From Patescibacteria group bacterium (GTDB lineage: Bacteria; Patescibacteriota; Minisyncoccia; Phycocordibacterales; Phycocordibacteraceae), in contig JAGWWK010000003.1 in assembly GCA_018970425.1 (NCBI GenBank), forward strand, positions 10,687-74,686: 64,000 nt of DNA, read 5' to 3'. The stretch's first letter is position 1; every line of letters starts with the position of its first letter. A model generated the notes under the pieces. It saw only the letters and a program-made list of their open reading frames with translations, did no database searches and was not told the origin of the DNA. Shown here piece after piece: positions 1 through 35,044 of this stretch. The position numbers and the translations under genes are program-made.

Positions 1-1376
1 AGAAAGAGCACGCGCTCGACTTTGATGACATACTCTGTACGGCGCTCAGACTGTTGCGCACCTCCCCCGAGGTACTCACGCATTTCAGACACGCGTGGTC
101 GCACTTTCATGTGGACGAATACCAGGACACAAATCGCGTCCAATACGAACTTATTACGCTCCTCGCCGCCGGCACGCGAAACATTGCCGTCGTTGGCGAT
201 GTTGACCAAAACATTTACTCCTGGCGCGGCGCTTCTATTGAACACATACTGCGCTTTGAGGAAGAGTACCCCGACACGGCGGTAGTTACGCTTACGGAGA
301 ATTATCGCTCAACTAAAACCATCCTCGCTGCCGCAAATCAGGCGATAGAAAAGAATATCCGTCGTCGGGAGAAGGTGCTCGTCACCAAAAATGCCGATGG
401 CGAGCACATCCACCTTGGCGGATTCGCGGATGAGCATGGCGAAGCGCGCTTTATCGCGAGCGAGGCAGCGCGGAAAATCCGCGCGGGTGAATCACCGGAC
501 GCTATTGCGGTGCTCTACCGTGCCAACTTTCAGTCTCGCGTGCTTGAAGAAGCGTTCCTCCGCGCCGATGTGCCGTACCAGGTACTTGGTACGCGCTTTT
601 TTGAACGTGCCGAGGTAAAAGACGCTCTCGCGTATCTGAAAGCAGCACTCAACCCCGCGTCACTTGCCGACCTCACGCGCGCAATACAGACGCCCTCGCG
701 CGGCATAGGTAAAGTGTCTCTCGCCAAACTTGCCGCGGGCGGGATCGATGCGCTCAGCGGTATGCAGCGGGAAAAAGCAGCGGCCTTTTACCGCATTCTT
801 GATCGTATTCGCGCCGCGGCAGAGCGCGACCTGCCGTCTGCGGTTATAAAACTTGTCATAGAGTCGTCCGGCCTCTCCACGCTCTATGAATCGGGTGACC
901 ACGAGGATGCTGAGCGACTTGAAAACCTGCGAGAACTCGTCTCTGTCGCGCAAAAGTACGATGACCGTGGGCCTGACGGCATTGACCTCCTGATTGAAGA
1001 AGCGGTGCTCCAATCCGAACAAGATGAGTTGTCTGTGAGTGAGCAACTGAAGCGTCGCGGCGTGAAGCTCATGACCATACACGCAGCTAAGGGGCTCGAG
1101 TTCGATACCGTATTTATTGCAGGCCTTGAGGAAGGGCTGTTCCCGCATGAGCGAGACGGTGAAGAAGGGGATAGTGAGGAGGAGCGTCGACTCTTTTATG
1201 TGGCACTCACGCGCGCCCGAGCGCGCGCCTACCTGACATACGCCATAACGCGTCGTATCTTTGGCAGTGTTACCGCCTCAGTTCCGAGCGAGTTTATTAT
1301 GGAAATAGACCCCGCCCTTACCGATGTCGTCGGGACTGACGAGCGCGGCGACCGCCTTGAAACAATACACATATGA
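1..1376 (+). CDS. UvrD/PcrA/Rep-family superfamily 1 DNA helicase, C-terminal part (5' end lies upstream of the window)
   Basis: Helicase motifs in the translation: 'VVGDVDQNIYSWRGA' (III), 'LTENYRST' (IV), 'TIHAAKGLEFDTVFI' (V) and 'RRLFYVALTRAR' (VI). The ORF runs off the left edge. Confidence 0.85.
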   Translation, partial: KEHALDFDDILCTALRLLRTSPEVLTHFRHAWSHFHVDEYQDTNRVQYELITLLAAGTRNIAVVGDVDQNIYSWRGASIEHILRFEEEYPDTAVVTLTENYRSTKTILAAANQAIEKNIRRREKVLVTKNADGEHIHLGGFADEHGEARFIASEAARKIRAGESPDAIAVLYRANFQSRVLEEAFLRADVPYQVLGTRFFERAEVKDALAYLKAALNPASLADLTRAIQTPSRGIGKVSLAKLAAGGIDALSGMQREKAAAFYRILDRIRAAAERDLPSAVIKLVIESSGLSTLYESGDHEDAERLENLRELVSVAQKYDDRGPDGIDLLIEEAVLQSEQDELSVSEQLKRRGVKLMTIHAAKGLEFDTVFIAGLEEGLFPHERDGEEGDSEEERRLFYVALTRARARAYLTYAITRRIFGSVTASVPSEFIMEIDPALTDVVGTDERGDRLETIHI

Positions 1377-2134
1377 CCCGAGCCCGCACACCGCGTTTGG
1401 GTCAGCACCTTCTCACGAACCCACGGGTGAGCGCACGACTCGCTGACGCCGCTCGCGTGACGAGCGGAACGCGCGTCCTCGAGGTCGGCCCGGGGAAGGG
1501 GGCACTCACTGCGGAGCTCCTCGCGCGCGGCGCACGCGTCCTTGCAGTAGAGAAGGACCCGGCGTTTGCAGCCATACTTCGCGAGCAATTTGCGGACGCG
1601 CTTGCGTCAGGCGCACTCACGCTCATAGATGGCGACATACGTGACCACACGCCCGACGCACTTATGGGACACGCGCCGTATGTTGTCGCGGCCAACATCC
1701 CGTACTACATCACGGGAGAACTCATACGCACATTTCTCACGGCAGCGCATCAGCCCACTACAATAGCGCTCCTCGTGCAGAAGGAGGTCGCGGAGCGTAT
1801 CGCCCGCTCTAAGAAAGAGAGCATACTCTCACTCTCCGTAAAGGTCTACGGTCAACCGCGATACATCACGACCGTGTCGCGTGGCAACTTCTCTCCGCCA
1901 CCTACGGTGGACTCTGCGATTCTCGCAATCACTGATATTTCACGAAAAAACTTCGCATCTGCTTCGGAGGAGCGTTTTTTTGAAATTGTAAAGGCGGGCT
2001 TTGCGCAAAAGCGCAAAACTCTCGCCGGCAACCTTACTCGCGCGCTCGGCACCTCGCTCGGCGTGCCTCCAAACATTCGCGCTGAAGATGTGCCGCTCGC
2101 TACATGGCGTATGCTTGCCGAGCGCGCACATTAG
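1373..2134 (+). CDS. rsmA: 16S rRNA (adenine1518/1519-N6)-dimethyltransferase RsmA/KsgA
   Basis: 'GQHLL' N-terminus, SAM motif 'VLEVGPGKGALT' and 'ANIPYYIT' (equivalent to NLPYNIS). ATGA overlap with the upstream helicase. Confidence 0.85.
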   Translation: MTRARTPRLGQHLLTNPRVSARLADAARVTSGTRVLEVGPGKGALTAELLARGARVLAVEKDPAFAAILREQFADALASGALTLIDGDIRDHTPDALMGHAPYVVAANIPYYITGELIRTFLTAAHQPTTIALLVQKEVAERIARSKKESILSLSVKVYGQPRYITTVSRGNFSPPPTVDSAILAITDISRKNFASASEERFFEIVKAGFAQKRKTLAGNLTRALGTSLGVPPNIRAEDVPLATWRMLAERAH

Positions 2135-3249: not shown

Positions 3250-3289
3250 TACGGCATGACACTCTAAATAAGCTTATATACTGAATGTA

Positions 3290-4078: not shown

Positions 4079-6018
4079 AATATCTCGGTGCGACACTCAT
4101 CTTTTTCGCGCTTTTGTTGCCGTTTCAGGCAGCTCACGCTGAGCTGCCTATAACTGAGGCAGGTAACGGAAGACCCGCAACAGCAGATATCGCTCCATCT
4201 GCCCTCACTAACGAAAATGTGAGTGCGATTGCTGATAAGGTCTCCCGAGACATGAAAGCTCTCATCGATAAGGGTGAGCAACTTGGCTGCGGTCAAGCAT
4301 CTGGCGAGCATGGAGGGTCTCTCGCCGCATCACTAGAGCAACTGATGCGTGGACTCATTGACGATGTTAAGGGCTCCCTCATGGGGGCCGCTCGTGGGCA
4401 AGTGCGAGACTTTTTAAATCGAATCTCTGCTAATGCCGGCCCGCTCGCACCAGTAGTGCAGCCTCTCGTAAACTTCATCGGCGCAAAAGCGGACGCGCTT
4501 ATCAGACAAGTGGGGGAGAAGATTTTTAGCTTTATTGATCCTTCAGGCGCGGCTACTACTGCACTGAGCGGTGTTGCGCAGGCAGTGGGTCTAAATTTGG
4601 GGAACATTGGCATCGGGGCGGGCCTCCTTGGAGATCTGCCTGTCGCCGGTATTGGTGCGAGCGTGCCGGTTACTGAGACCGGCGCGCAACTCTCTCTCAC
4701 ACGCTCAATTGAAGGTAGTACTTTGCGTACTGAGCCGTTGATCAAGTACATGAGAGACGCGAGCGGTACTCAGCTGTACGTCGCCTGTGTCGTAAACCCT
4801 GCAATATCGAAATCTAAGAATGGGATCGTGGCTAACCAGGTGCGCGGCATGGTACAGACAGCTGCTGAAAAGCAGGTAACAAATGTCTTTGAGGCGTCTC
4901 AGCGGAGCGGTGACTTCTATGCGCGGAAGTCAATCGAGGCTTCAGCGCAGGGTATGTGCTCATCACACCGACAAGAGGTTATGGAAATGGTTATTAATCA
5001 GTTTAGCGGTGCGCGCACAACCGCACAGTGCTCAGAGGAAAATGAGCAAAAGCCTGGAGCAGACTTTGACTTTCAGAAGCAAGTAGCGTCCCTAGCTAAC
5101 CCAGGAAACGTGCCGGCAATGCAATTCTTCAATGCTATTGCAAAGGCAACGCAGGAGGGGCTTGCGGCTACAGCTGTCACCGTCCTCGAATATCATAAGA
5201 ATGAGGGATTTTCTAATACATATGAATGCACTGAAGCCGAGAGAGACCTCAAACCAGGGGAAGTGTGTATCAATGGCCAGGTAGTGCTGCACGGAAAGAT
5301 GGTAGCCGGAGCTTTGTCGAGCGCTCTTAATGCCCCGATGCAGCAGCTCATTCAAGCCGATGAGATTGGTGAACTGATAGATGCGATGTCTGCGGGCCTT
5401 ATGCAGGTCGCATTTCAGAATGTACGAGGAATTCTCGGACTTGTAGAGAAGAGTGGCTCGCGCGGCTCATACCTCGACGAGATGGTTGCACAAAACTATG
5501 ACGAGTCTGCTATTTCACCCCAGCGCGTCCTTACGGGGGACATAGCAGCCGCTCTCGATACTGAAACTCAGTATGGGCAAGCACTCGACATTATTCTTGC
5601 AGATCTTGCCACTGCAAAAAAGAACTATGAATCTGCGGCGGCATGTTACGAACCGATCCGCTCACAAGGCAAAGGGGACATTACCCCACAGATTGCTCGC
5701 GATGCAGTTGCACTTGCAACCACGACTGTCGGCATTGCCATCAATCCGCAGGTGTCACTCCTCCTAACTGAAAAAGCATCGAGCGACAGCGCGCTTGGCG
5801 AGCTGGTCGAGTTGGTCAATGCGGCAGAAACTGCACTCTCGCAAAAAGATATAGTCGAGGTTTCTTCCCGCTTTAGCGCACTCAAAGCATCAGGGCGCAT
5901 GCATACAACAACTGATCTGCAGGCGCTCATTAATAGTATGGAGTTTGGCGCCGCATCGATTGAGCGCATGCTTCGCGATGCCACTATTCTTCTAGCAGCG
6001 TGTACTAAAGCAGTATGA
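4074..6018 (+). CDS. large secreted hypothetical protein (about 648 aa), T4SS-like cluster component
   Basis: Start is taken at ATG 4074 (ATGA overlap with the upstream stop), giving the signal peptide 'MKYLGATLIFFALLLPFQAAHA'. The longer ORF call from 3955 overlaps the previous gene. Confidence 0.5.
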
Positions 6019-8630
6019 AGCGTCTCCTGATCGCAATCGGACTTCTGGGCGCACTACTGATTCCTAGTTTTGCTATTGCCGCACCGCCTACAGCGTCAGA
6101 GTGCACAATGCAGGCTCTCGAAAAGAAAGGGATTCTCTGTCCAGCCATCACAGTATCCGCGACAGAAGGTCGCCCCGAAAGAACCTTTGTCGGCGCAGCC
6201 ATATATGAACAGGGGACATGCAAGTGCGGGTATGATACAAATGGTCTAATTCAGTACGCGACACCGCTACGGTTGAACCTGGAAGATATCCTACAAACAA
6301 AGGAAGGTGACGGTAAGAATAAAAATACAAGTAACCTCAACTACAACTTCAATGCGCCTGCCGACGACCTAGCGACCGGCGCCTCGAGAAAAACGTCCAC
6401 AGACGTTGTAGGCGCTGGCGTAGCGCGCAAGGTTGAAGCGGAAGTTAAAACTCCCGACACATTCTGTGAAAATCTTCCAATTGGTTTTTCGTTCTTGTGC
6501 AACTTAATTAGCTCGCTATTCAACCTAGAATTCTGGTGGTTCATACTCGGAACGCTCGTGTGGATGCTGTTCCTCGTTGCATCAATGATGCTTGCCGTTG
6601 CGGTGTATATGGCGGACGGAGCAATCTACTATCTTGTAATTCATGCCGGTGTCATACTCAATAACACAATTGCGAATGACGGGATTCTTGCCGCGTGGGC
6701 TTTAGTCCGAGACCTTGCAAACCTGACAATTATTGCCGGATTCATTGCGGTCGGCATCAGCACCATTCTCGATATTGCGCAGTACGCTGCGAGCAAGTTC
6801 CTCGCACGCCTCATCATTGCGGCACTACTTGTAAACTTCAGCTATTTTTTGACCGGCGCAGTCATCGATGCCTCAAACTATCTTAGTGTCGCGGTTTATA
6901 ACAGCAAGCTTTTTATAAATGGATGCAGCGGGATGAAACAAGAGAGGGTACTCTCATCGGCCGGCGCGGCCCTTAATACAGCCGCGATGGGCGCATGGTC
7001 CGGAGATATGCGGCAGCAAACCTGTCTCGTTGCTCAGGCATTCTACAAAGAGACCAACATGTCCTCCTGGTCTCAAATTCAAAAAATGGCGCTGACTGCA
7101 TCTCGCACGCAGACAGCGCCCTCTGAGTTCGGTACGACGGAGAGCCGCGGGTACTACTTTATGCTACTCGTTATTGGAACTATGGGGCTTGCCTTTACCG
7201 TACTGTTGGCGTTCGTAATGGTTAACCTCGCGTACATGATCATTGTACGATTTATCGTCCTCGTCGTCCTTCTCGTCACGTCACCGATTGGCTTTGCTGG
7301 AATCAATGTTCCATTTCTAGAATCTGCCGCAAACCGCTGGTGGAGCGCGCTCCTCGGACAAGCATTTTTTGTTCCTGTCATGCTCTTTCTCCTCGCCACA
7401 GGGATCACAATCCTGAAGGGCTTCAATGACATGTTCAAGCGTATGGGTAGCGAGCAGAGCTTTACCAGCGCACTCATCGCCCTCCAAAATGCTGGTGCGG
7501 ATATGGGATGGGCTGTCGCTATTCTTCCTGTATTCCTTACATTTGCGCTCGGTGTCGGATTCATCGGAGTAGCGCTTGTCATCGGGCGGCAAATTACCGA
7601 GCAGTCAGACTTTAAACCATTTTACGCGTACGCGCAGAACGCGGCATGGGCAACGCTGCGCACGCCCGTCACCATCCCAGGGGGTCTTCTGAACGGCGTG
7701 ACCGGTTTGCTTAATCAATCCAAATTAGGAGCGTGGCTCTTAAAAGATGAGCGCGGTTTCATGGGTCAGATGAAAAACTTCATACGCATACCGTACCAGC
7801 TCTTTGCCGGAGGCATGCGCCAAGCAACGCGCCTTGGAGAGAAGCCGAAGGAGGGTGAGAAAGGGGTCTTCGAAACGATGCGAGAAGAAGCGAAAGCAGG
7901 GAAGGAGGAGCGCGCAGAAAAGGAGATGGAAAAGATTGTCCGCAGTGGTCCGCCCGAGGCGCAAGCGCGAGTGATTGAGAGTATGGATCCTGATGAAGCG
8001 ATTGACCGCTTTGGAATTAATAAACTCTTAGAACTTCAAGAAAAAGGACATCTCTCGTCTGACTACTTCAAAAAACTGCACGAAAGTGCAAAAGTCAGCG
8101 AGGCAGACAGAAAGAGCATTACCGATGCGCGCTTTTCCGACATCATGAGAGACTTTGGTCGAGGTAACTGGAGTAACGCTGCAGAGAAGATCGAGGCACT
8201 CGATGAGACGGAGCGCAAAATATTGTTTGAGGAGCGCAAAGAACTCCGTAACCAGAAAGAATTGCTCGCGCAACTTAAGGGTAAGACATTCGATGAAATT
8301 GCTGACAAACGCTCAGATGGAAAAGCAATGCGCGGCTTACGCAAAGAGGCTATGGCCACGCGTATCTCGGCAGCTGACGATGCTGGCCTTCGCAGTCTAG
8401 GGTCTTCGCTATCTAATAAAGATCTTCTAGAGCTTAATGTTGACCAGGTCCGCAAGCTCGGGCGTGCAGGAGCTCTGAAGGCATCACAGTTCAGACACAT
8501 TATGGAAGAGTCACGAGATGAAGCGGTAAAGGCCTACATTAGAGAGAATCATGCTGAAGATCTCGTGGGCCCAGGTACCCCAAAGCCAGCAAGCGCACCT
8601 CCAGCTCAGGGATCAAATCCGGCTTCGTAG
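6015..8630 (+). CDS. VirB6/TrbL-like polytopic membrane protein with a long charged (K/E-rich) cytoplasmic C-terminal tail
   Basis: Signal peptide 'MKRLLIAIGLLGALLIPSFAIA', then at least eight hydrophobic helices. One segment runs from 'FWWFILGTLVWMLFLVASMMLAVAVYM' to 'SPIGFAGINVPF'. About 330 aa of coiled-coil-like KE-rich tail. ATGA overlap with the upstream gene. Confidence 0.55.
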   Translation: MKRLLIAIGLLGALLIPSFAIAAPPTASECTMQALEKKGILCPAITVSATEGRPERTFVGAAIYEQGTCKCGYDTNGLIQYATPLRLNLEDILQTKEGDGKNKNTSNLNYNFNAPADDLATGASRKTSTDVVGAGVARKVEAEVKTPDTFCENLPIGFSFLCNLISSLFNLEFWWFILGTLVWMLFLVASMMLAVAVYMADGAIYYLVIHAGVILNNTIANDGILAAWALVRDLANLTIIAGFIAVGISTILDIAQYAASKFLARLIIAALLVNFSYFLTGAVIDASNYLSVAVYNSKLFINGCSGMKQERVLSSAGAALNTAAMGAWSGDMRQQTCLVAQAFYKETNMSSWSQIQKMALTASRTQTAPSEFGTTESRGYYFMLLVIGTMGLAFTVLLAFVMVNLAYMIIVRFIVLVVLLVTSPIGFAGINVPFLESAANRWWSALLGQAFFVPVMLFLLATGITILKGFNDMFKRMGSEQSFTSALIALQNAGADMGWAVAILPVFLTFALGVGFIGVALVIGRQITEQSDFKPFYAYAQNAAWATLRTPVTIPGGLLNGVTGLLNQSKLGAWLLKDERGFMGQMKNFIRIPYQLFAGGMRQATRLGEKPKEGEKGVFETMREEAKAGKEERAEKEMEKIVRSGPPEAQARVIESMDPDEAIDRFGINKLLELQEKGHLSSDYFKKLHESAKVSEADRKSITDARFSDIMRDFGRGNWSNAAEKIEALDETERKILFEERKELRNQKELLAQLKGKTFDEIADKRSDGKAMRGLRKEAMATRISAADDAGLRSLGSSLSNKDLLELNVDQVRKLGRAGALKASQFRHIMEESRDEAVKAYIRENHAEDLVGPGTPKPASAPPAQGSNPAS

Positions 8631-8635
8631 TACGC

Positions 8636-9220
8636 ATGCTCACTCAAGAAGAAATTAGTAAGAAATACAGCGAGGCACCACCGGATGTACAAGCGTTGGT
8701 GAAGGATCCGGATGTCTACGATGCATTCCACCTTATTCGACGCACGCATAACCTGCATGTTGATGCGGCAGGTGCACTCGCCGACCTTATAACGGCACTT
8801 ATTCTTGGTGCGGTGCCGCTTGCAGAGCTTGATGCTCATCTTGCTGAAGCGCTCCCTGGCGTCGATGCCGCAACACGCGAAAAAGTGAGGGCAGACCTTA
8901 ATGAACACATCTTCAAGCCCCTCAGAGAGCGCAAACGATCAGAAACCCCGGATCTCGCCACTGTGTACAAAGCCGCGCTTATAGAAAAGCTCGGCGGTAC
9001 ACTGCCTCGAATTGAGGAATCTCCAGCAAAAACAGTTCCTTCAGTACAAGTACCTCGAGAATCGATTGTGGCACAAAAGCTCGGGGTTAGTCCTCGAGCT
9101 TTGCAAACCAGAGAAGGGGACGGTGCCCCTCAGCCACGCTCCGGAGCGCAGGAACCTAGCCCTACGAGCACGCCGGTACGATATCGGAGCATCGACCCAT
9201 ATCGAGAACCGATTGAGTAG
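8636..9220 (+). CDS. hypothetical protein (194 aa, no TM), T4SS-like cluster
   Basis: ORF tightly spaced within the operon; no recognisable motifs. Confidence 0.4.
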   Translation: MLTQEEISKKYSEAPPDVQALVKDPDVYDAFHLIRRTHNLHVDAAGALADLITALILGAVPLAELDAHLAEALPGVDAATREKVRADLNEHIFKPLRERKRSETPDLATVYKAALIEKLGGTLPRIEESPAKTVPSVQVPRESIVAQKLGVSPRALQTREGDGAPQPRSGAQEPSPTSTPVRYRSIDPYREPIE

Positions 9221-9247
9221 TCCTCAAGAGCGTTATACTTTAGGTGT

Positions 9248-9676
9248 ATGCGCTTTCAAGTTCCGCAATTCATAGAGGTTGAAGACCGAATAATCGGTCC
9301 TTTTACCATTACGCAGTTTGTCTATCTTGCGGGAGGGTTGGGATTTCTCTTTGCGCTTTGGCTCACGCTCCCGCTCTGGGCCGCACTTCTTCTTGGCGTG
9401 CCAGTTGCAGCTTTGGGTGGCGCGCTTGCTTTTGTGCAAATAAATAATCGACCGCTCATTACCACACTCGAGCATGCCTTCTTCTACGCCCTTAAAGACA
9501 AACTCTACATCTGGTCGAAACGTACGAAATCGCCGGCTGAGCTTGCTAAAGAGGCTGTGGAGCGCACCGAGGATCCGTCTCGGTATGTGGTGAGCCCCAC
9601 ATCGAATAAACTTAAAGACATCGCGTGGTCACTCGACATCAAAGAGTCGATATATTCTGACCGAAACCAGCGGTAA
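9248..9676 (+). CDS. PrgI/VirB3-like small membrane protein (two TM helices)
   Basis: 'QVPQFIEVEDRIIGPFTITQFVYLAGGLGFLFALWLTLPLWAALLLGVPVAALGGALAF' matches the PrgI-family pattern (VP-FIE-EDRI-GPFT-Q-YL) followed by two TM segments. It lies immediately upstream of VirB4, as in Gram-positive T4SS. Confidence 0.6.
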   Translation: MRFQVPQFIEVEDRIIGPFTITQFVYLAGGLGFLFALWLTLPLWAALLLGVPVAALGGALAFVQINNRPLITTLEHAFFYALKDKLYIWSKRTKSPAELAKEAVERTEDPSRYVVSPTSNKLKDIAWSLDIKESIYSDRNQR

Positions 9677-9696
9677 AGCTGATACAATACTAACGA

Positions 9697-10365
9697 ATGG
9701 CGGCCGAACAACAGAAATCAAAGGCGGCGCAAGACTTCATCCCTGTTGAAGAGGTGCGTGGGGGAGTGATCGTGCTCAAAGACGGAACACTTGTGAGCGT
9801 CCTCATGGCATCATCCCTCAACTTCGCGCTTAAATCCGCAGAGGAACAGGAGGCAACACTTTTTCAGTTTCAATCATTCTTAAACTCGCTCGACTTTACC
9901 ATTCAGCTTTTTGTGCAGTCGCGAAAGCTCGATATCAGGCCCTACCTCACACTCCTCGAAGAACGGCTTGTGGCTCAAACTGATGACCTGATGCGGCTCC
10001 AAGTGCGCGGGTACATTGACTTCATTCGCGAGTTTACCGACAGGCAGAATATTATGTCAAAACACTTCTTCATCGTGATCCCGTATCGCGAGCCGCTCAC
10101 CCGCACCAGCGAAACAGTGCAACGAACGTTTTTTGGTGCTGGGTCGCTCTCCGCCAAAGAGAAGAGCATTGGATTTGAGGAACAGCGAACTCAGCTTGAA
10201 CAGCGCGTTGGAGTTGTGGAGCAGGGACTCACGCGTTGCGGTATCCGTACGACACCACTCGATACTGAATCCGTCATTGAACTCCTTTTTAAAGAATTTA
10301 ACCCGGGCGAACTCGAGAAGCCTATTTCCGCTACTGCACAGAGTGATGTGAGGATATCTACCTAG
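9697..10365 (+). CDS. virB4: VirB4/TraC/CagE-family ATPase, N-terminal domain fragment, ending in an in-frame TAG
   Basis: 'FIPVEEVRGGVIVLKDGTLVSVLMASSLNFALKSAEEQEA' is the typical VirB4 N-terminus. It is in the same reading frame as the 10369..12180 ORF and separated from it only by TAG at 10363-10365. Confidence 0.6.
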   Translation: MAAEQQKSKAAQDFIPVEEVRGGVIVLKDGTLVSVLMASSLNFALKSAEEQEATLFQFQSFLNSLDFTIQLFVQSRKLDIRPYLTLLEERLVAQTDDLMRLQVRGYIDFIREFTDRQNIMSKHFFIVIPYREPLTRTSETVQRTFFGAGSLSAKEKSIGFEEQRTQLEQRVGVVEQGLTRCGIRTTPLDTESVIELLFKEFNPGELEKPISATAQSDVRIST

Positions 10366-10368
10366 CAT

Positions 10369-12180
10369 ATGGGAATATTTGATTCATTGTTTGGCGCAAA
10401 AAAAGGTCCCGCGGAGGAGCTGACGCCATTTCTCCCGAAAGATATTTATGAGGCGGCAAAGCTCGACTTTGCCGACATCATTGCACCTGCAGCACTCAAG
10501 ATCACGCCGCGCGAACTCAGCCTGGGAGAAAAGCTCGTACGGACTTTTTATGTAATTTCATATCCGCGATTTCTTTCCGAAAGCTGGTTTGCGCCGATCA
10601 TTAACTTGGATAGAGCGTTCGATGTATCTATATTCGTGCATCCTATTGATACAGCTGGTGTGTTACGCAAATTTCAGAACAAGGTCGCTGAAATTCAGTC
10701 TCAAATTATGGCGCGAGAGCAAAAAGGGCTTGTGCGAGACCCCGTCCTCGACACCGCCTACCGCGACATTGAAGAACTTCGAGACAAACTCCAGCAGGCG
10801 CAAGAGCGCATCTTCGAAGTCGGACTGTATATCTCAATTTATGGCTCAAGTTATGAAGAACTCGATAAGGCGGAGTCTGAAATCCGCTCTATCCTTGACG
10901 CAAAGCTTGTCTACATTAAGCCGGCACTCTTTCAGCAAGAGCAGGGATTCTTGAGCGTCATCCCTACAGGCAAAGACCTGCTCGAGGTTACCTCTAAGCT
11001 CAACTCGTCTCCGCTCTCATCACTGTTCCCATTCATATCGTTCGACCTGACGTCCGATCGCGGCATTCTGTATGGGGTGAATCGCCACAACGCGTCCCTC
11101 ATCTTATTCGACCGATTTTCGCTAGAAAACTATAATTCCGTCACATTCGCGAAGTCCGGAGCTGGGAAGTCCTACGCGACCAAGCTCGAAATTCTCCGCT
11201 CGCTCATGTTCGACACCGAGGTTATTGTGATTGATCCAGAAAATGAGTACGAGTATCTCTCCAACGCTGTGGGAGGGCGGTTCTTCTCCATATCACTGTC
11301 GTCAGACCACCACATTAACCCGTTCGACCTCCCAGTGCCCCGCGAGGATGAGTCACCAGCCGATGTACTCCGCTCTAACATCATTAATCTTGTTGGTCTT
11401 TTCCGTCTCATGCTCGGCGGACTCTCGCCAGAGGAGGACGGCCTCATAGATCGTGCAATAACTGAAACCTATGCCCTGAAAGATATTACCGGTGCGAACA
11501 ACTTTGCCGGGCAAGAGCCTCCGCTCCTTTCGGACTTTGAACTTGTCCTTGCGGGTATGGAGGGCTCAGAATCTCTTGTGCAACGCCTCTCCAAATACAC
11601 TAAGGGAACATGGTCCGGATTCTTGAATAGACCAACGAACGTAGACATCAATAAAAAGTGCGTTGTCTTTTCCGTGCGCGACATGGAGGACGAGTTGAAG
11701 CCAGTCGCGATGTACATCATCACGCACTATATATGGAACGCAGTCCGCAAAGAGCTGAAAAAACGCCTCCTCGTCGTCGATGAGGCGTGGTGGATGATGA
11801 AAAATGACGATACGGCATCATTCTTGTTCTCGATGGCTAAACGCGGACGAAAGTACTTCCTTGGCCTTGCGACCATAACTCAAGACGTAGAGGATTTTCT
11901 TCGAAGTCCATACGGCCTCCCGATGCTCACTAACTCGTCGATCCAGCTCCTCCTCAAGCAATCTCCAACTGCGATCGATGCGGTTCAAAAAACATTTAAC
12001 CTCACTGATGAAGAAAAGTACCTGCTCCTCGAGTCCGATGTGGGGGAGGGGATATTTTTCGCGGGGCTAAAGCACGTCGCGATCAAGATCTTCGGCTCGT
12101 ACGCGGAAGACCAGATCATAACGTCAGACCCATCCCAGCTTCTTGCTATTGCTAAAGCGGCGCGTGAGCGACGTCAGTGA
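10369..12180 (+). CDS. virB4: VirB4/TraC/CagE-family T4SS ATPase, central and C-terminal part (in frame with 9697..10365)
   Basis: Walker A 'FAKSGAGKSYATK' and Walker B 'RLLVVDEAWWMM'. 'ITPRELSLGEKLVRTFYVISYPRF' is the VirB4 middle region. The combined length of 826 aa is typical of full-length VirB4. Confidence 0.8.
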   Translation: MGIFDSLFGAKKGPAEELTPFLPKDIYEAAKLDFADIIAPAALKITPRELSLGEKLVRTFYVISYPRFLSESWFAPIINLDRAFDVSIFVHPIDTAGVLRKFQNKVAEIQSQIMAREQKGLVRDPVLDTAYRDIEELRDKLQQAQERIFEVGLYISIYGSSYEELDKAESEIRSILDAKLVYIKPALFQQEQGFLSVIPTGKDLLEVTSKLNSSPLSSLFPFISFDLTSDRGILYGVNRHNASLILFDRFSLENYNSVTFAKSGAGKSYATKLEILRSLMFDTEVIVIDPENEYEYLSNAVGGRFFSISLSSDHHINPFDLPVPREDESPADVLRSNIINLVGLFRLMLGGLSPEEDGLIDRAITETYALKDITGANNFAGQEPPLLSDFELVLAGMEGSESLVQRLSKYTKGTWSGFLNRPTNVDINKKCVVFSVRDMEDELKPVAMYIITHYIWNAVRKELKKRLLVVDEAWWMMKNDDTASFLFSMAKRGRKYFLGLATITQDVEDFLRSPYGLPMLTNSSIQLLLKQSPTAIDAVQKTFNLTDEEKYLLLESDVGEGIFFAGLKHVAIKIFGSYAEDQIITSDPSQLLAIAKAARERRQ

Positions 12181-12209
12181 CCTCCTGTTTCACTTGGTAT
12201 ACTATAGAT

Positions 12210-13124
12210 ATGCGTTGGCTTGTTGTTGGCCTTCTTCTCTTTGCTCAACCTGTATGTGCGGCAGACCTATTGCTCTCAACGAGCCCTACCGCACCCCGAC
12301 CAGGTGAAAGAGTTACGGTGTCTGCAAAGATACCCGGGGACTCCTCAAGTACACTTTTCTCATGGATCCAAGATGGTATAGAGATTGCGCGTGGCTACGG
12401 ACAGACATCGGTAGAAATTACTATGCCCGCCTTAGGAAAAGAGGTAGAGATCGCTGTCACAGCAAATGGTGAAGAGCTTGTATCGCCACTTGTCCTCAGG
12501 CCTCAGCGAGTGACAATAGAATGGGAAGGATTTTCAACACGACCGCTCATGTACGATGGGCGTCCTATCTTCACGGCTCAAGGTGAAGTACGTTTTCAAG
12601 CGATCGCGGAACTTATAACACCGCGTGGTGAACGGATTATACCTGACGACATTAAGTACACATGGAGTGTCGATGGGGGAACTAGAAAAGAAAGTGGGTA
12701 TGGACGCACAACAATTACCGTCCGCCCTCCGTTCTATAACCGCCCGTTTACCGTGTCCCTCCGTGCAGAAACTCGCTCTGGACTCATCGCACGCGACGAA
12801 GTTACGGTGCAAGCTAAACTCCCATCTGTGGCCATTTACGAACTCTCACCGTTGCGCGGAGTGCTAACCCAGCGTGCCATCACCGCGAACACAACACTTT
12901 CTCAATCCGAAGTTACATTTGTGGCATACACCGTCGGCTCACCCAGAGAACGTGAATACCAATGGACACTCAACAATGAGCCCGTGGTTGTTGCGGGTGA
13001 CGATCCGCGGATCGTGACGTTCCGCAAAACGGGTGCGGGCGTCGGCATATATCAAGTGGGGTTCAATGCGAAAAGCGGTGCACCGTTTGATACGTTCAGC
13101 AGTTCTTTTCTGCTAAACTTCTGA
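12210..13124 (+). CDS. secreted protein with about three Ig-like/beta-sandwich repeats
   Basis: Signal peptide 'MRWLVVGLLLFAQPVCA'. Repeated modules of about 90 aa, for example '...TLFSWIQDG', '...KYTWSVDGG' and '...EYQWTLNNEP'. The ORF track starts at an upstream GTG at 12177. Confidence 0.45.
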   Translation: MRWLVVGLLLFAQPVCAADLLLSTSPTAPRPGERVTVSAKIPGDSSSTLFSWIQDGIEIARGYGQTSVEITMPALGKEVEIAVTANGEELVSPLVLRPQRVTIEWEGFSTRPLMYDGRPIFTAQGEVRFQAIAELITPRGERIIPDDIKYTWSVDGGTRKESGYGRTTITVRPPFYNRPFTVSLRAETRSGLIARDEVTVQAKLPSVAIYELSPLRGVLTQRAITANTTLSQSEVTFVAYTVGSPREREYQWTLNNEPVVVAGDDPRIVTFRKTGAGVGIYQVGFNAKSGAPFDTFSSSFLLNF

Positions 13125-13125
13125 T

Positions 13126-13521
13126 ATGCGGCTACTCCGGATCGCACTACTCACAGCAGGTATCAGCGCGGCGCACGCAGCTTTCGCGGCAACCGATATA
13201 ACTACGCGCCCAGAAAATTTTGTTCCGATAGCTCCCATCATGGGAGAATCCGGACAATACATCACGAGTGGGAGTCTCGGCCAATACATTAATACGCTAT
13301 TTCGCTATTCTATTGGGGTAGGCGCTACTCTCGCAATTATTTGGATTATGATTGGCGGATTTGAATATATCTTTTCAGAGGCGACTGAGTCGAAACAGAC
13401 TGGCCGCCGCCGCATTACGAACGCAATTTATGGCCTCCTCATCCTTCTATTCGTAAGTATAATTCTCTACACGATTGATCCTTTATCGTTAAACCTCGAT
13501 CCGTTTAGAACAGGGAGTTAG
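13126..13521 (+). CDS. VirB2/TrbC-like T4SS pilin candidate
   Basis: 131 aa. Signal peptide 'MRLLRIALLTAGISAAHAAFA' followed by two hydrophobic helices, 'IGVGATLAIIWIMIGGFEYIF' and 'AIYGLLILLFVSIILYTI'. This is the classic T-pilin architecture. Confidence 0.5.
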   Translation: MRLLRIALLTAGISAAHAAFAATDITTRPENFVPIAPIMGESGQYITSGSLGQYINTLFRYSIGVGATLAIIWIMIGGFEYIFSEATESKQTGRRRITNAIYGLLILLFVSIILYTIDPLSLNLDPFRTGS

Positions 13522-13524
13522 TAC

Positions 13525-14727
13525 ATGCGTATCTCACAACTTGCGCTTGCATTTGGTTTTCTAGCGATACTTGGGGTAGTGGCTCTCGGAATATGGCTGG
13601 GATCGCGCATGCTTACACAAGGATCAGAAGGCGCGAGAACAGCGCTACAGGGTTTTACCTCATTCTTACCCTATGGACAGCCCGTGCCCGGTGAATCCAT
13701 AATCGGGACAGGCGCAGAGATACAGGAGGAACCTATTGTACGAATGAGGCGCGTTTCAGATGCACCGGTTGCAGGCGCTGCTTTCTTTGAAGAGAACGGC
13801 CGACCCATCCTTCGATTTGTTGAACGGGAAACTGGGCATATATATGATGCATCGCCAGCGAATAAAACGCTCGTACGCAGATCGAACACAACTATTCCTG
13901 CAGTTATGAATGCATTTTTCTTAAATGCGACCTCAACGCTCATGCGCGTGTACGAGACCCCTGACTCAGTTCGCACCATTCTCGGCACACTAGGGACCAC
14001 TACCGAGGAGGATGCCACCTTGGCTACTACTAACTTCACTGACTACGCATCTATCGCGGTACAGAACGGTAGCATAGTAGGTATTCGACGGACTACCCAG
14101 GGCGCTGAAGTAGACCTTCTTTCCGGCGGACGAATACCGGGACGAACTGTCACTCGGACATCATTGACATCTTGGATTCCAGCACTTGCGGGGGCGAGCG
14201 TCTACCTCACCGCCTCGCCAAGCGGAACTGCTCTTGGTTCCTCATATGCGGTATCTAGAAGTGGCCTTGTACGCATAATTGGCCCTCTTCCTGGCCTAGA
14301 AATACTTCCTAGTGACACAGGGAAAACGCTTCTTGCATCCGAGGGAGGAGCGAATCGCGCCGTTCTCGGAACCGTGACAAATGTAGATTCATTCGTCCCA
14401 TTGCCATTTGAAACATTCATTGAAAAATGCGTTTGGGCATCCAAGTCCGACGTGTTGGTTATCTGCGCCATCCCCAAGTCATTACCTGTGGGTATCTACC
14501 CTGATGCGTGGAAACTGGGAGAAATTACTACGGCTGACGAGTTCTGGTCGGTCGACCTTGAAACGGGAGCAACAATACGCATCGCGGATCCGGAGACGGA
14601 GGGTGTAGGAGTGCTAGATGCGCATCAACTTACGACCGATCCAACAAATCAATATCTTGCTTTTATAAATCGCACGGATATGTCGCTCTGGATTCTTAGT
14701 CTAGAGACGCCGGAGACTGGGGAATAG
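13525..14727 (+). CDS. membrane-anchored extracytoplasmic hypothetical protein (400 aa), last gene of the T4SS-like operon
   Basis: N-terminal TM 'LALAFGFLAILGVVALGIWLG'. The rest is Ser/Thr/Gly-rich and looks beta-rich. Confidence 0.4.
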   Translation: MRISQLALAFGFLAILGVVALGIWLGSRMLTQGSEGARTALQGFTSFLPYGQPVPGESIIGTGAEIQEEPIVRMRRVSDAPVAGAAFFEENGRPILRFVERETGHIYDASPANKTLVRRSNTTIPAVMNAFFLNATSTLMRVYETPDSVRTILGTLGTTTEEDATLATTNFTDYASIAVQNGSIVGIRRTTQGAEVDLLSGGRIPGRTVTRTSLTSWIPALAGASVYLTASPSGTALGSSYAVSRSGLVRIIGPLPGLEILPSDTGKTLLASEGGANRAVLGTVTNVDSFVPLPFETFIEKCVWASKSDVLVICAIPKSLPVGIYPDAWKLGEITTADEFWSVDLETGATIRIADPETEGVGVLDAHQLTTDPTNQYLAFINRTDMSLWILSLETPETGE

Positions 14728-15178
14728 TCGGATCGATATAGCGAACGACAATGTGGCGGAGTGGACCCTCGCCATGAGACATGGTCTGAATATCAGTAGC
14801 ATCTTTAAGAGTTGCGTGTATGATCATGCGCTCGTAGGCGTTCATTGGAGGAAGCTCTACATCGTAACGGAACGTCCGTGCACGCTCAGCTACAAGCTTT
14901 GCCTGGTCTTCAAGTGACTTAATCTTTTTATGGTGATATCCGTTTACGTCTATGACAAAATGGAAGTCGCGAGGAACTTCTTTTTCCAGCATCTTTTTAA
15001 CAATATGATTGAGTGCCGATAGGGTCTCTCCATTTTTTCCGATCAGTTTTCCTGATTCAATCGTACGAATGGTAAAAATGGTGCTACCTGCAGCTTCAGA
15101 TACCTCTATACCATCAACCGGCAGGCCAAGCTTGCTAATAATACTTCGGACTGATGTCTCAATGAGTGCTGTGTCCAT
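14696..15178 (-). CDS. jag: Jag/KhpB RNA-binding protein (KH + R3H domains)
   Basis: KH motif 'LIGKNGETLSALNHIV' and R3H 'YERMIIHATL'. It sits downstream of yidC, as in the canonical origin-region operon. Confidence 0.75.
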   Translation of the reverse strand: MDTALIETSVRSIISKLGLPVDGIEVSEAAGSTIFTIRTIESGKLIGKNGETLSALNHIVKKMLEKEVPRDFHFVIDVNGYHHKKIKSLEDQAKLVAERARTFRYDVELPPMNAYERMIIHATLKDATDIQTMSHGEGPLRHIVVRYIDPTIPQSPASLD

Positions 15179-15899
15179 GGGTTTCCGCGTGGCGACGCTT
15201 TGCCACTACTTCCTGCAGTATGCCAAAAATATTTGAGGTGAGGAAGTAGAGGGCTATCGCGGCGCTTGCTATGTAGGCAATACCCCCAAGGAGGATAGGA
15301 AACACATACCGCATTTGAATGTGCATAGAGGCCATGAGGTCATCTTGAAATGCTTTACCCGTCTTTTCAGGCGCGGCAGGCATCATAAGGCGTGAAAGCC
15401 AGTACTGCGTTCCCGCAACGAGGACGGCCAGTACTACAGACGGCTCATTGAGCGGGACTATATTAAGGAATACAAAGCTTGAAACCTGTGGCTCAACCAC
15501 AAACGGGTACAGGAGTGCCGTATCAAAAACTCCCGTCTTGCTATCGGCCCATATGACCCAGTAGAGTCCGAAAATGATCGGGAGCTGCAAGAGGATAATA
15601 AAAAAGCTAGCGAACGGGTTTACCTTGTGCTCTCGGTACAGCGCGAGCGTCTTCATCGCGAGTTCCTGCGGTGCATTCTTATGTGCTTCTCGTAATACTC
15701 GGAGCTGAGGTTCGAGAGAGCGGAGAACAATCTGCGTATGCGAGGCTTTTACACCAAGAGGGAATAGGGCAACCTTAACGAGTACAGTAAGAAGTACGAT
15801 AGCGAGGCCGACGTCTCCCGCAGGCATCCAAGATACTAAAAATGCCAGCGCGTTGTAGATCGGGAGATAAATGAACGAGTGAAAAAATGCTACGAACAC
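15159..15899 (-). CDS. yidC: membrane protein insertase YidC (short Gram-positive-type form)
   Basis: 'LLTVLVKVALFPLGVKASHTQIVLRSLEPQLRVLREAHKNAPQELAMKTLALYREHKVNP' matches the YidC/Oxa1 core, with further TM helices downstream. Confidence 0.8.
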   Translation of the reverse strand: MFVAFFHSFIYLPIYNALAFLVSWMPAGDVGLAIVLLTVLVKVALFPLGVKASHTQIVLRSLEPQLRVLREAHKNAPQELAMKTLALYREHKVNPFASFFIILLQLPIIFGLYWVIWADSKTGVFDTALLYPFVVEPQVSSFVFLNIVPLNEPSVVLAVLVAGTQYWLSRLMMPAAPEKTGKAFQDDLMASMHIQMRYVFPILLGGIAYIASAAIALYFLTSNIFGILQEVVAKRRHAETHGHSTH

Positions 15900-16227: not shown

Positions 16228-16362
16228 CTATACGGCGAGACGAGCGCGTCCTTTCTGTCGGCGACGAGCGAGTACTTTGCGACCTGCGGCCGTTTTTGAA
16301 CGGACAAGGAATCCGTGAGTAGTTGCTCGCTTGCGCTTTTTTGGTTGATATGTTCGTTTCAT
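16228..16362 (-). CDS. rpmH: 50S ribosomal protein L34 (not present in the ORF track)
   Basis: The minus strand translates to '[44 protein letters not shown]' (44 aa), a near-canonical L34. Confidence 0.9.
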
Positions 16363-16375
16363 AATCGATGCGTGG

Positions 16376-16395
16376 TTATACACACATTATACACA
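16376..16395. promoter_or_regulatory. two direct DnaA-box-like 9-mers (TTATACACA x2) in the rpmH-dnaA intergenic region
   Basis: 'TTATACACA' at 16376-16384 and again at 16387-16395; both fit the relaxed DnaA-box consensus TTATNCACA. They lie in the 95-bp spacer upstream of dnaA. Confidence 0.5.
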
Positions 16396-16457
16396 GTGCA
16401 CTAGAAATCTCAACGTTTTCCGACGCCTTGCCACATACCCTGAGTAGGGGATAATGA

Positions 16458-17939: not shown

Positions 17940-19040
17940 ATGAAAATAGAAATACTAAGAGATCATTTAGACAGAGCAGTTAGCACCGCGGCAAAGGTGA
18001 GTAACAAGCAACTATCATTGCCTGTATTAGGGTGTGCAGTGTTTGTTGCGACTAAGGAGCGGGCCGTCCTACGTGCGACAAATTTAGATGTGAGTGTTGA
18101 GGTGGTGCTTAAGGCAAAGGTCATTACTGAGGGCGTGGCGGCGGTACCTGCACATGTTCTTGCGCAGACCGTTGCGGCGTTCTCTGATCAGAAACTGACG
18201 ATAGAGGCAAAAGAGACTACGTTGAAAGTGGTCGGGGAGCGAGGCAAGAGTAGTATTGCAACGATAGATGCGAGTGAGTTTCCCACACTTCCGTATGTTA
18301 AAGAAGGAGAGGGTGTAGCGGTTCGTATTCCAAGTAAGGAGCTTGGGGCGCTTCTCAAGAACGTATCATTCGCGGCAGCGACATCAAGTATGCGCCCAGA
18401 GCTTGCGAGTGTATCTCTTTCGCTCGACGGGGGAGAGCTGATTGCTGCGGCAACTGACTCCTTTCGCCTTGCGGAGGCGCGAATCCGCACTAAAGAACGT
18501 GCGGCGTTTGGACCTGCTCTTATTCCTGCCCGGAATGTGCCTGAAATCGTTCGCTGTATAGAGTTTGGAGCAGAAACTGATATACGAGTCGCGGAGACGC
18601 AGATTACCTGTGTAACTGATCATGGGTTTATTACGTCTCGGACTATAGACGGTGCGTTCCCGGACTATCGGGGTTTAGTCCCTAAGGAGTTTTCGGCGAC
18701 CGCGACTGTTCTTCGTGAGGATGTGGTTAGGGCTTTTCGAAAAGTTCAAATATTTGCTGATGCATTCAATCAGGTTCACATTACTGTGGATCCGGTAGCG
18801 CATCGATTTTCTATCCAATCATCGAACGCGGCAGTAGGGGAGACTGATGAAGACATTCCCGCATCTGTTGAAGGAGAGCAGATTGCAATGAATTTTAACG
18901 CTAAGTACATTACCGACGCACTTTCGGTTATGGGTGGAGATAGTACCTCGTTTGCAATTGCGGGGCCGGGAAAGCCGATGGTACTTAAGGACACGCCAAA
19001 TCGAGGGTTTATGTACCTCGTGATGCCGATGAATCGCTAA
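17940..19040 (+). CDS. dnaN: DNA polymerase III beta sliding clamp
   Basis: 366 aa immediately downstream of dnaA. Three-domain clamp-like periodicity; the N-terminus 'MKIEILRDHLDRAVSTAAKV' is typical of DnaN. Confidence 0.8.
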   Translation: MKIEILRDHLDRAVSTAAKVSNKQLSLPVLGCAVFVATKERAVLRATNLDVSVEVVLKAKVITEGVAAVPAHVLAQTVAAFSDQKLTIEAKETTLKVVGERGKSSIATIDASEFPTLPYVKEGEGVAVRIPSKELGALLKNVSFAAATSSMRPELASVSLSLDGGELIAAATDSFRLAEARIRTKERAAFGPALIPARNVPEIVRCIEFGAETDIRVAETQITCVTDHGFITSRTIDGAFPDYRGLVPKEFSATATVLREDVVRAFRKVQIFADAFNQVHITVDPVAHRFSIQSSNAAVGETDEDIPASVEGEQIAMNFNAKYITDALSVMGGDSTSFAIAGPGKPMVLKDTPNRGFMYLVMPMNR

Positions 19041-34650: not shown

Positions 34651-34669
34651 AGGGGAAGTATACCTCGTG

Positions 34670-35044
34670 CTAGGCGTCGTTCAGTTTCACTGTGATTTTA
34701 TTGTTGATGATAGTTACAGACTCATGCGGAATAGACGCGCGAAAATGCTCAAATGCACCAGACCCGTCTTCCTCGCCTCTACACGAGTACAGTGAGAAGT
34801 AGATTGAGTTATGCTCGGGGTATGTGTGTATAGCCGCATGAGACTCTGCGAGTAGAACGAGTGTGGTATACCCAAGAGGCGTAAAGCGGTGGGGTAGAGA
34901 TCCGAGTACGGTAAAGTTGTCGATTTTTAAGCCCTCATGGAGTGTGGCGTCAATGAGTTCTATATTGTTGAGTACCTCGGGCGGAACGCCGTGGAAAACG
35001 GCGGAGATCTCGTTACCCGTGGCCGGAGATTGATAGTGTGTCAC
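34670..35044 (-). CDS. speD: S-adenosylmethionine decarboxylase proenzyme (small SpeH/SpeD-type, pyruvoyl-dependent)
   Basis: 'LVLLAESHAAIHTYPEH' matches the AdoMetDC 'ESHISIHTWPE' self-cleavage/active-site region. 124 aa. Confidence 0.7.
   Translation of the reverse strand: MTHYQSPATGNEISAVFHGVPPEVLNNIELIDATLHEGLKIDNFTVLGSLPHRFTPLGYTTLVLLAESHAAIHTYPEHNSIYFSLYSCRGEEDGSGAFEHFRASIPHESVTIINNKITVKLNDA

Follow-up and report, generated by a model that had tools for sequence, protein, structure and literature searches.

A virB4 gene apparently split by an amber codon in a Patescibacteria chromosome is very probably a natural pair of TrsD-like and short-form virB4 genes

We analyzed a stretch of 64,000 nucleotides (nt) from a Patescibacteria group bacterium (assembly GCA_018970425.1, contig JAGWWK010000003.1, positions 10,687 to 74,686 of the forward strand), hereafter the window, in which two consecutive open reading frames (ORFs) of a type IV secretion system (T4SS) gene cluster lie in the same frame with a single TAG codon between them (Table 1). 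An earlier note on this DNA had read the two as one VirB4 ATPase split by an in-frame amber codon and had listed four explanations: a recent nonsense mutation, a sequencing or assembly error, programmed read-through, or a genuinely two-piece VirB4. The last of these proved right. We consider it very probable that ORF1 and ORF2 are a natural pair of intact, separately translated genes, one TrsD-like and the other a short-form virB4 (trsE-like), belonging to a chromosomal T4SS of the monoderm type, and that the TAG is the natural stop codon of the first.

The evidence that carries this reading comes from the same junction in related Patescibacteria. Eighty related loci were fetched from species-representative genomes, and the 77 that hold both genes were tabulated. 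In 77/77, the ORF1 homolog ends in a stop codon and is followed by a separate gene of ~600 amino acids (aa). A comparison of orthologous clusters at the TAG position had been proposed in the earlier note, and consistently separate genes are the outcome that it had itself named as speaking against a lesion. Its headline of a VirB4 split by one amber codon is also contradicted by the variety at the junction, where all three stop codons (TAA in 60 loci, TAG in 14, and TGA in 3) and all three frame offsets occur, with gaps between the two genes ranging from -14 to +496 nt (median ~4 nt).

A recent nonsense mutation, turning a TAC, TAT, CAG or TGG codon into TAG, would have cut a continuous virB4 of ~826 aa and inactivated the system. 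Such an event would explain two ORFs in one frame with a single stop between them, and one fused homolog of 797 aa (P0222, described below) does exist in another Patescibacteria genome. However, the stop is found at the equivalent place in all the tabulated loci, including the four closest relatives (L001-L004, 70-73% identity, with TAA+2 nt, TAG+1 nt, TAA+3 nt, and TAA+2 nt, respectively), and the pairs are mostly out of frame. Moreover, ORF2 begins with MGIFD, matching the conserved start of its orthologs (MG[IL]FDF, or more loosely M[GAS][ILF][FL]D[FL] across the 77 loci). The C-terminal tails of the ORF1 homologs vary in length and sequence after a conserved NPGELEKPI and hence resemble free protein ends, and the fused form is only one of the best 150 cluster representatives matched by the ORF1 profile, the split form being far commoner. 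A recent lesion, as proposed in the earlier note, is thus contradicted by the two-gene layout, and we regard it as extremely unlikely.

Adjacent genes on the same strand share a reading frame one time in three. Among the 77 orthologous pairs, the second gene was offset from the first by 0 in 17 cases, by +1 in 34, and by +2 in 26, so that in-frame pairs were not enriched (22%, where 33% would be expected by chance). The shared frame seen in the window is therefore a coincidence, and neither the frame nor the stop codon at the junction is constrained across the orthologs. These mixed offsets also mean that in most pairs no read-through could ever join the two genes, which bears on the proposal that programmed or leaky suppression of the TAG yields a minor fused TrsD-VirB4 isoform of 827 residues beside the separate proteins. 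The in-frame relation in the window, the single extra codon (CAT) before the ATG, and the natural fusion, evidence that the two parts tolerate a covalent link, would all fit such an isoform. A TAG followed by C is also not the strongest termination context. On the other side, 60 of the 77 pairs are out of frame, those in frame mostly end in TAA, the tightest stop, and fall short of their chance share, and no conserved downstream structure was seen, nor would one be possible across gaps of such different lengths. TAG is moreover an ordinary stop in the window, where it terminates 22 of the 62 long ORFs. As neither the in-frame relation nor a leaky stop is conserved, read-through as an explanation of the junction is contradicted, and we hold it to be very unlikely indeed.

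The TAG itself is real and not a sequencing error. Four independent Logan assemblies, each of a separate sequencing run (SRR32006835, SRR32006836, SRR31802043, and SRR31802045), contain the ORF1 protein unchanged and a junction identical over 121 nt. In all of them the gene call is a 222-aa and 603-aa pair, and the 222-aa protein is also annotated in the NCBI record as KGO06_02215. An error in this record, which the earlier note had allowed for, is a general possibility in metagenome-assembled genomes and has nothing more in its favor. Against the identical junction in four assemblies, its probability is practically negligible. The layout given in the earlier note was confirmed from the sequence, with a 3-nt gap (CAT, 10366-10368) and a translation across the junction of '...RIST*HMGIF...'. 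Reassignment of the TAG codon was also considered and was ruled out because of the 22 long ORFs that end in TAG, in agreement with the earlier note, which had described TAG as a normal stop elsewhere in the window and reassignment as unlikely.

ORF2 is, as judged from its sequence, a VirB4-family T4SS ATPase, with scores above curated thresholds and a position inside a T4SS gene cluster. It matched the NCBIfam model NF045971 (conju_CD1110) with 371.1 bits (cut-off 325) over profile positions 179-732 of 752, as well as the Pfam models P-loop_TraG (83.3 bits, cut-off 25.8) and AAA_10 (38.1 bits, cut-off 27.5). The Walker A motif (AKSGAGKS, residues 261-268, window 11149-11172) and the Walker B motif (LLVVDEAW, residues 467-474, window 11767-11790) both lie in ORF2, where the earlier note had placed them. 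At residues 117-199, weak matches to Pfam CagE_TrbE_VirB and TraC_F_IV place the distal part of the N-terminal region of VirB4 in ORF2 as well. The break between the two chains falls inside that region rather than at the boundary of the N- and C-terminal domains. The earlier assignment of the conserved VirB4 N-terminal domain to ORF1 stands, by remote homology, for the first part of the domain only.

Remote homology, seen in profile matches and in the fused homolog P0222 and hinted at by a predicted fold, supports a reading of ORF1 as a separately encoded equivalent of the first ~170-210 residues of VirB4 in its full-length form. It has the layout of a stand-alone TrsD-type protein, being 222 aa long, devoid of hydrophobic segments, and encoded 3 nt upstream of virB4. 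It matched the NCBIfam TrsD/TraD model (NF041427) with 32.7 bits (E 6.3e-8) over profile positions 11-142 of 201 and, weakly, the N-terminal positions of full-length VirB4 models (CD1110 2-165/752, VirB4_plasma 98-236/894, and TIGR00929 4-123). On the CD1110 profile, the two chains are complementary, ORF1 covering positions 2-165 and ORF2 positions 179-732. The matches recur in the family: 17/17 aligned ORF1 homologs match the TrsD and VirB4_plasma models and 16/17 the CD1110 model, with a best TrsD E-value of 2.4e-9.

The family is large and consists of short proteins. The protein collection held 7840 ORF1 homologs, the best 120 of which are all 212-253 aa long and 62-73% identical to ORF1, and the mean column identity of the family reaches 70%. 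When the ORF1 profile was compared with 1.84 billion cluster representatives (50% identity), 2865 clusters were matched. Of the best 150 of these, 149 have representatives of 102-443 aa, none of them a full-length fused VirB4, and almost all are matched by the profile at their N-terminus. In some TrsD-like proteins, long C-terminal tails of 100-230 residues, of low complexity, rich in Pro, Ala, Gln, and Thr, and disordered, follow an NP(G/E)E motif; they include P0172 and P0189 (432-443 aa) and ~30 other representatives of 280-443 aa. A TraC-like domain (PF26593) is listed in the precomputed annotation of ORF1 and of all 120 listed homologs, while our local Pfam-A scan (E <= 0.01) found no family in ORF1, perhaps because the local Pfam copy lacks that model.

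Several observations weigh against this reading of the pair. The 32.7 bits of ORF1 are far under the NF041427 curated cut-off of 200, and we name the protein 'TrsD-like', a remote homolog and not a member, since it falls below NCBI's own threshold. More generally, the NCBIfam scores of ORF1 (14-33 bits) all remain far under the curated cut-offs, making its homology to VirB4 and TrsD remote. A PDB sequence search with the profile of ORF1 homologs returned chance matches only (E >= 0.17, Dcp2 proteins), and a fold comparison was therefore needed to detect VirB4. With an AlphaFold2 model of ORF1 (pLDDT 67), the top 14 Foldseek hits in the PDB were all TrwK/VirB4 of R388 (probability 0.85-1.0, no other protein near), but with E-values of only 1e-3 to 3e-2 and TM scores of 0.35-0.44, from a model of moderate confidence, and the hits name chains and not the aligned region of TrwK. 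A direct profile-sequence comparison of ORF1 with the TrsD of pSK41 by hhalign was weak (probability 12%), and for the link to TrsD we thus rely on synteny and on the family profile of NCBIfam. No Shine-Dalgarno site was found at normal spacing before ORF2, the only candidate being a GAGGA 14 nt upstream. Finally, the assembly of the two chains and the coupling of their translation, set out below, are only what we infer.

The missing Shine-Dalgarno site has to be read against the translation signals of the whole window. Shine-Dalgarno-like 4-mers precede only 4 of 51 window genes, compared with 12% of random positions. As the genome is almost without such motifs, one would not expect ORF2 to have a classical ribosome-binding site, and as they are rarer than at random, asking whether ORF2 has a ribosome-binding site of its own is uninformative in this organism. 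Boxes resembling TATACT or TACAAT were seen within 20 nt of the start in 7/51 genes, as opposed to 1.4% at random. These counts concern the stretches upstream of genes, for example 9672-9696, 9223-9247, 3265-3289, and 34651-34675, and hint that the mRNAs of this organism are leaderless or very short-leadered.

Under the two-gene reading, the T4SS would be of the MPF-FATA type, pGO1/pSK41-like and of the monoderm kind. The TrsD-like protein would supply the first ~170-210 residues of VirB4, and the 603-aa chain the rest of the N-terminal region together with the Walker A/B ATPase domain. The two chains may join non-covalently as the equivalent of one full-length VirB4 protomer, with the PrgI/VirB3-like membrane protein from the preceding gene as its possible docking site. 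With only 3 nt between the genes, their translation could be coupled by termination and re-initiation, giving matched amounts of both proteins.

The fused homolog P0222 shows what a one-chain version of this pair looks like. It is encoded in another Patescibacteria genome (L085 544-2937, GCA_964615945.1, contig CAZTUR010000004.1), and its genomic setting has the same PrgI...jag-yidC-rnpA-dnaA-dnaN synteny close to oriC. Its residues 5-214 match the ORF1 profile, and ORF2 shares 60% identity with residues 232-793. The occurrence of split and fused forms at the same genomic position fits functional equivalence of the two. The MGIFDF segment with which the short VirB4 starts is missing from P0222. 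An occasional read-through of TAG-CAT-ATG, adding a minor covalent TrsD-VirB4 chain, or more broadly a regulatory or assembly role of TrsD's own, is in our estimate very unlikely; such a read-through chain would be a possible intermediate towards rare fused genes like P0222. The Patescibacteria T4SS, in which TrsD might act in that way, is essential for epibiotic life in the single cultured species examined for it.

The TrsD-like protein might alternatively be an independent T4SS accessory protein whose resemblance to the VirB4 N-terminus reflects ancient common descent only. In Gracilibacteria, TrsD homologs do not adjoin virB4 (PMC12102498), many homologs carry long disordered C-terminal tails, as in P0172 and P0189, and the very high conservation of the family would suit a protein with a function of its own. 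Against this stand the complementary cover of full-length VirB4 profiles by ORF1 and ORF2, the fused homolog at the same genomic position, and the tight adjacency of the two genes. We consider an independent accessory protein unlikely and prefer the two-chain equivalent of VirB4. A short VirB4 that follows an in-frame ORF in Patescibacteria or in Gram-positive mobile elements should not be labeled a pseudogene or 'repaired' into one gene during annotation.

The junction was seen to vary in other ways among the related loci. In five to six of them, a gene of the PF05635 family (23S_rRNA_IVP/bAvd-like) lies wholly between the TrsD-like gene and virB4 (L008 4658-5107, L041 4315-4756, L042 4652-5062, L072 4658-5057, L076 1498-1978, and partly L045 4643-5138). 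These inserts encode proteins of ~125-140 aa of a four-helix-bundle family (E 1e-23 to 1e-28) on the same strand. They are mutually only 66-73% alike, and only where alignable, which suggests repeated insertion at this junction. In several relatives with longer gaps, the 3' end of the TrsD-like gene can pair with bases just past its stop to form a hairpin (L045 ~4620-4665, L056 ~700-745, L076 ~1483-1510, and L032 ~4631-4657; for example, gcccatttctttagcttag / tcgactaagctaaagaaatgggc in L045). These hairpins could be terminators or attenuators between the two genes. Some VirB4 proteins of the relatives are outliers in length: that of L067 (1264 aa), twice the normal length, may be a fusion with a downstream protein, that of L035 is truncated at 272 aa, perhaps as a true pseudogene or through a frameshift in the assembly, and those of L031 and L033 measure 644-653 aa.

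Table 1 Coordinates of the TrsD-like/virB4 pair and of neighboring genes in the window.
Feature	Position	Strand	Details
ORF1, TrsD-like gene	9697-10365, including TAG stop	+	222 aa, ATG at 9697, soluble
ORF2, short-form VirB4/TrsE-like T4SS ATPase	10369-12180	+	603 aa, ATG at 10369, TGA at 12178-12180
Junction, very probably natural TAG stop of the TrsD-like gene (10363-10365) and CAT spacer	10363-10368	+	
PrgI/VirB3-like small membrane protein	9248-9676	+	142 aa, two hydrophobic segments, directly upstream of the pair
VirB2-like T4SS pilin	13126-13521	+	131 aa, Pfam PF18895 T4SS_pilin, E 5e-8, 33.3 bits > 26.6
Polytopic membrane protein at the cluster head, candidate VirB6-like channel subunit	6015-8630	+	871 aa, ~10 hydrophobic 19-mers
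PKD-like-domain protein between virB4 and the pilin gene	12177-13124		315 aa, one N-terminal hydrophobic segment
ksgA	1373-2134		
jag	14696-15178		
yidC	15159-15899		
dnaA	16458-17807		
dnaN	17940-19040		

The T4SS cluster around the pair looks intact. The PrgI call upstream of ORF1 is given by Pfam PF12666 (E 2.4e-8, 34.9 bits, above the cut-off of 27). The 871-aa membrane protein at the head of the cluster had no Pfam or NCBIfam match, and its VirB6 label comes from the earlier note and from the cluster composition in PMC12102498, not from homology. Downstream of the pair, the GTG start of the PKD-like protein overlaps the virB4 stop (GTGA), and this protein may belong to the T4SS as a surface or adhesin component. 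Neither a relaxase nor a coupling protein was seen in the immediate T4SS cluster. The cluster (6015-14727) lies on the + strand just left of the dnaA/oriC region (16308-16457), and the cumulative GC-skew of the window has its minimum at ~12-16 kb. Because of this strand and position, the cluster is transcribed towards the origin and head-on to the leftward fork, unlike jag and yidC.

Separate trsD and virB4 genes are known from plasmids of Gram-positive bacteria. In the staphylococcal conjugative plasmid pSK41 (S. aureus), a separate trsD of 227 aa is followed, after a 14-nt gap and out of frame, by the TrsE/DUF87 VirB4 ATPase of 672 aa, the corresponding values in the window being 222 aa, 3 nt, and 603 aa. 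The alignment of ORF2 with pSK41 TrsE is collinear from N- to C-terminus (residue 11 to residue 7, E 3e-36), and ORF1 and the 16 other aligned homologs match the NCBIfam TrsD model, a likeness to pSK41 and pGO1 (MPF-FATA class, pGO1 subclass). Unlike these plasmids, the locus in the window is chromosomal and adjoins oriC, and the match of ORF1 to TrsD is remote. The Bacillus thuringiensis plasmid BTB_502p encodes PrgI, an ORF1 homolog of 328 aa, and a DUF87 ATPase of 661 aa, with a 14-nt overlap; the PrgI-TrsD-VirB4 order of the window is common to this plasmid and to L085. In the full-length one-chain VirB4 proteins (CD1110 family, TrwK of R388, and TraC of F), a single polypeptide takes the place of the two in the window, which jointly cover the CD1110 profile.

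The closest comparison is with other Patescibacteria, in which the two-gene arrangement of TrsD and virB4 has already been described, together with the remote homology of TrsD to the VirB4 N-terminus (Microb Genom 2025;11:001409, PMC12102498). There, TrsD is the commonest T4SS component, with 2,272 homologs in 2,221 assemblies, 1,664 of them adjoining virB4, and in Ca. Southlakia epibionticum the TrsD homolog is listed as essential (PMC12102498). The published cluster consists of VirB6, PrgI/VirB3, TrsD, VirB4, and a VirB2-like protein, of which the window shares PrgI, the TrsD-like protein, VirB4, and the T4SS pilin, with TrsD directly upstream of virB4 in both. It is often found near dnaA, dnaN, rnpA, rpmH, and ksgA (PMC12102498), and the window shares ksgA, jag, yidC, dnaA, and dnaN with the published neighborhood. 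Compared with that cluster, the only peculiarity of the locus studied here is the chance shared frame across a 3-nt spacer.

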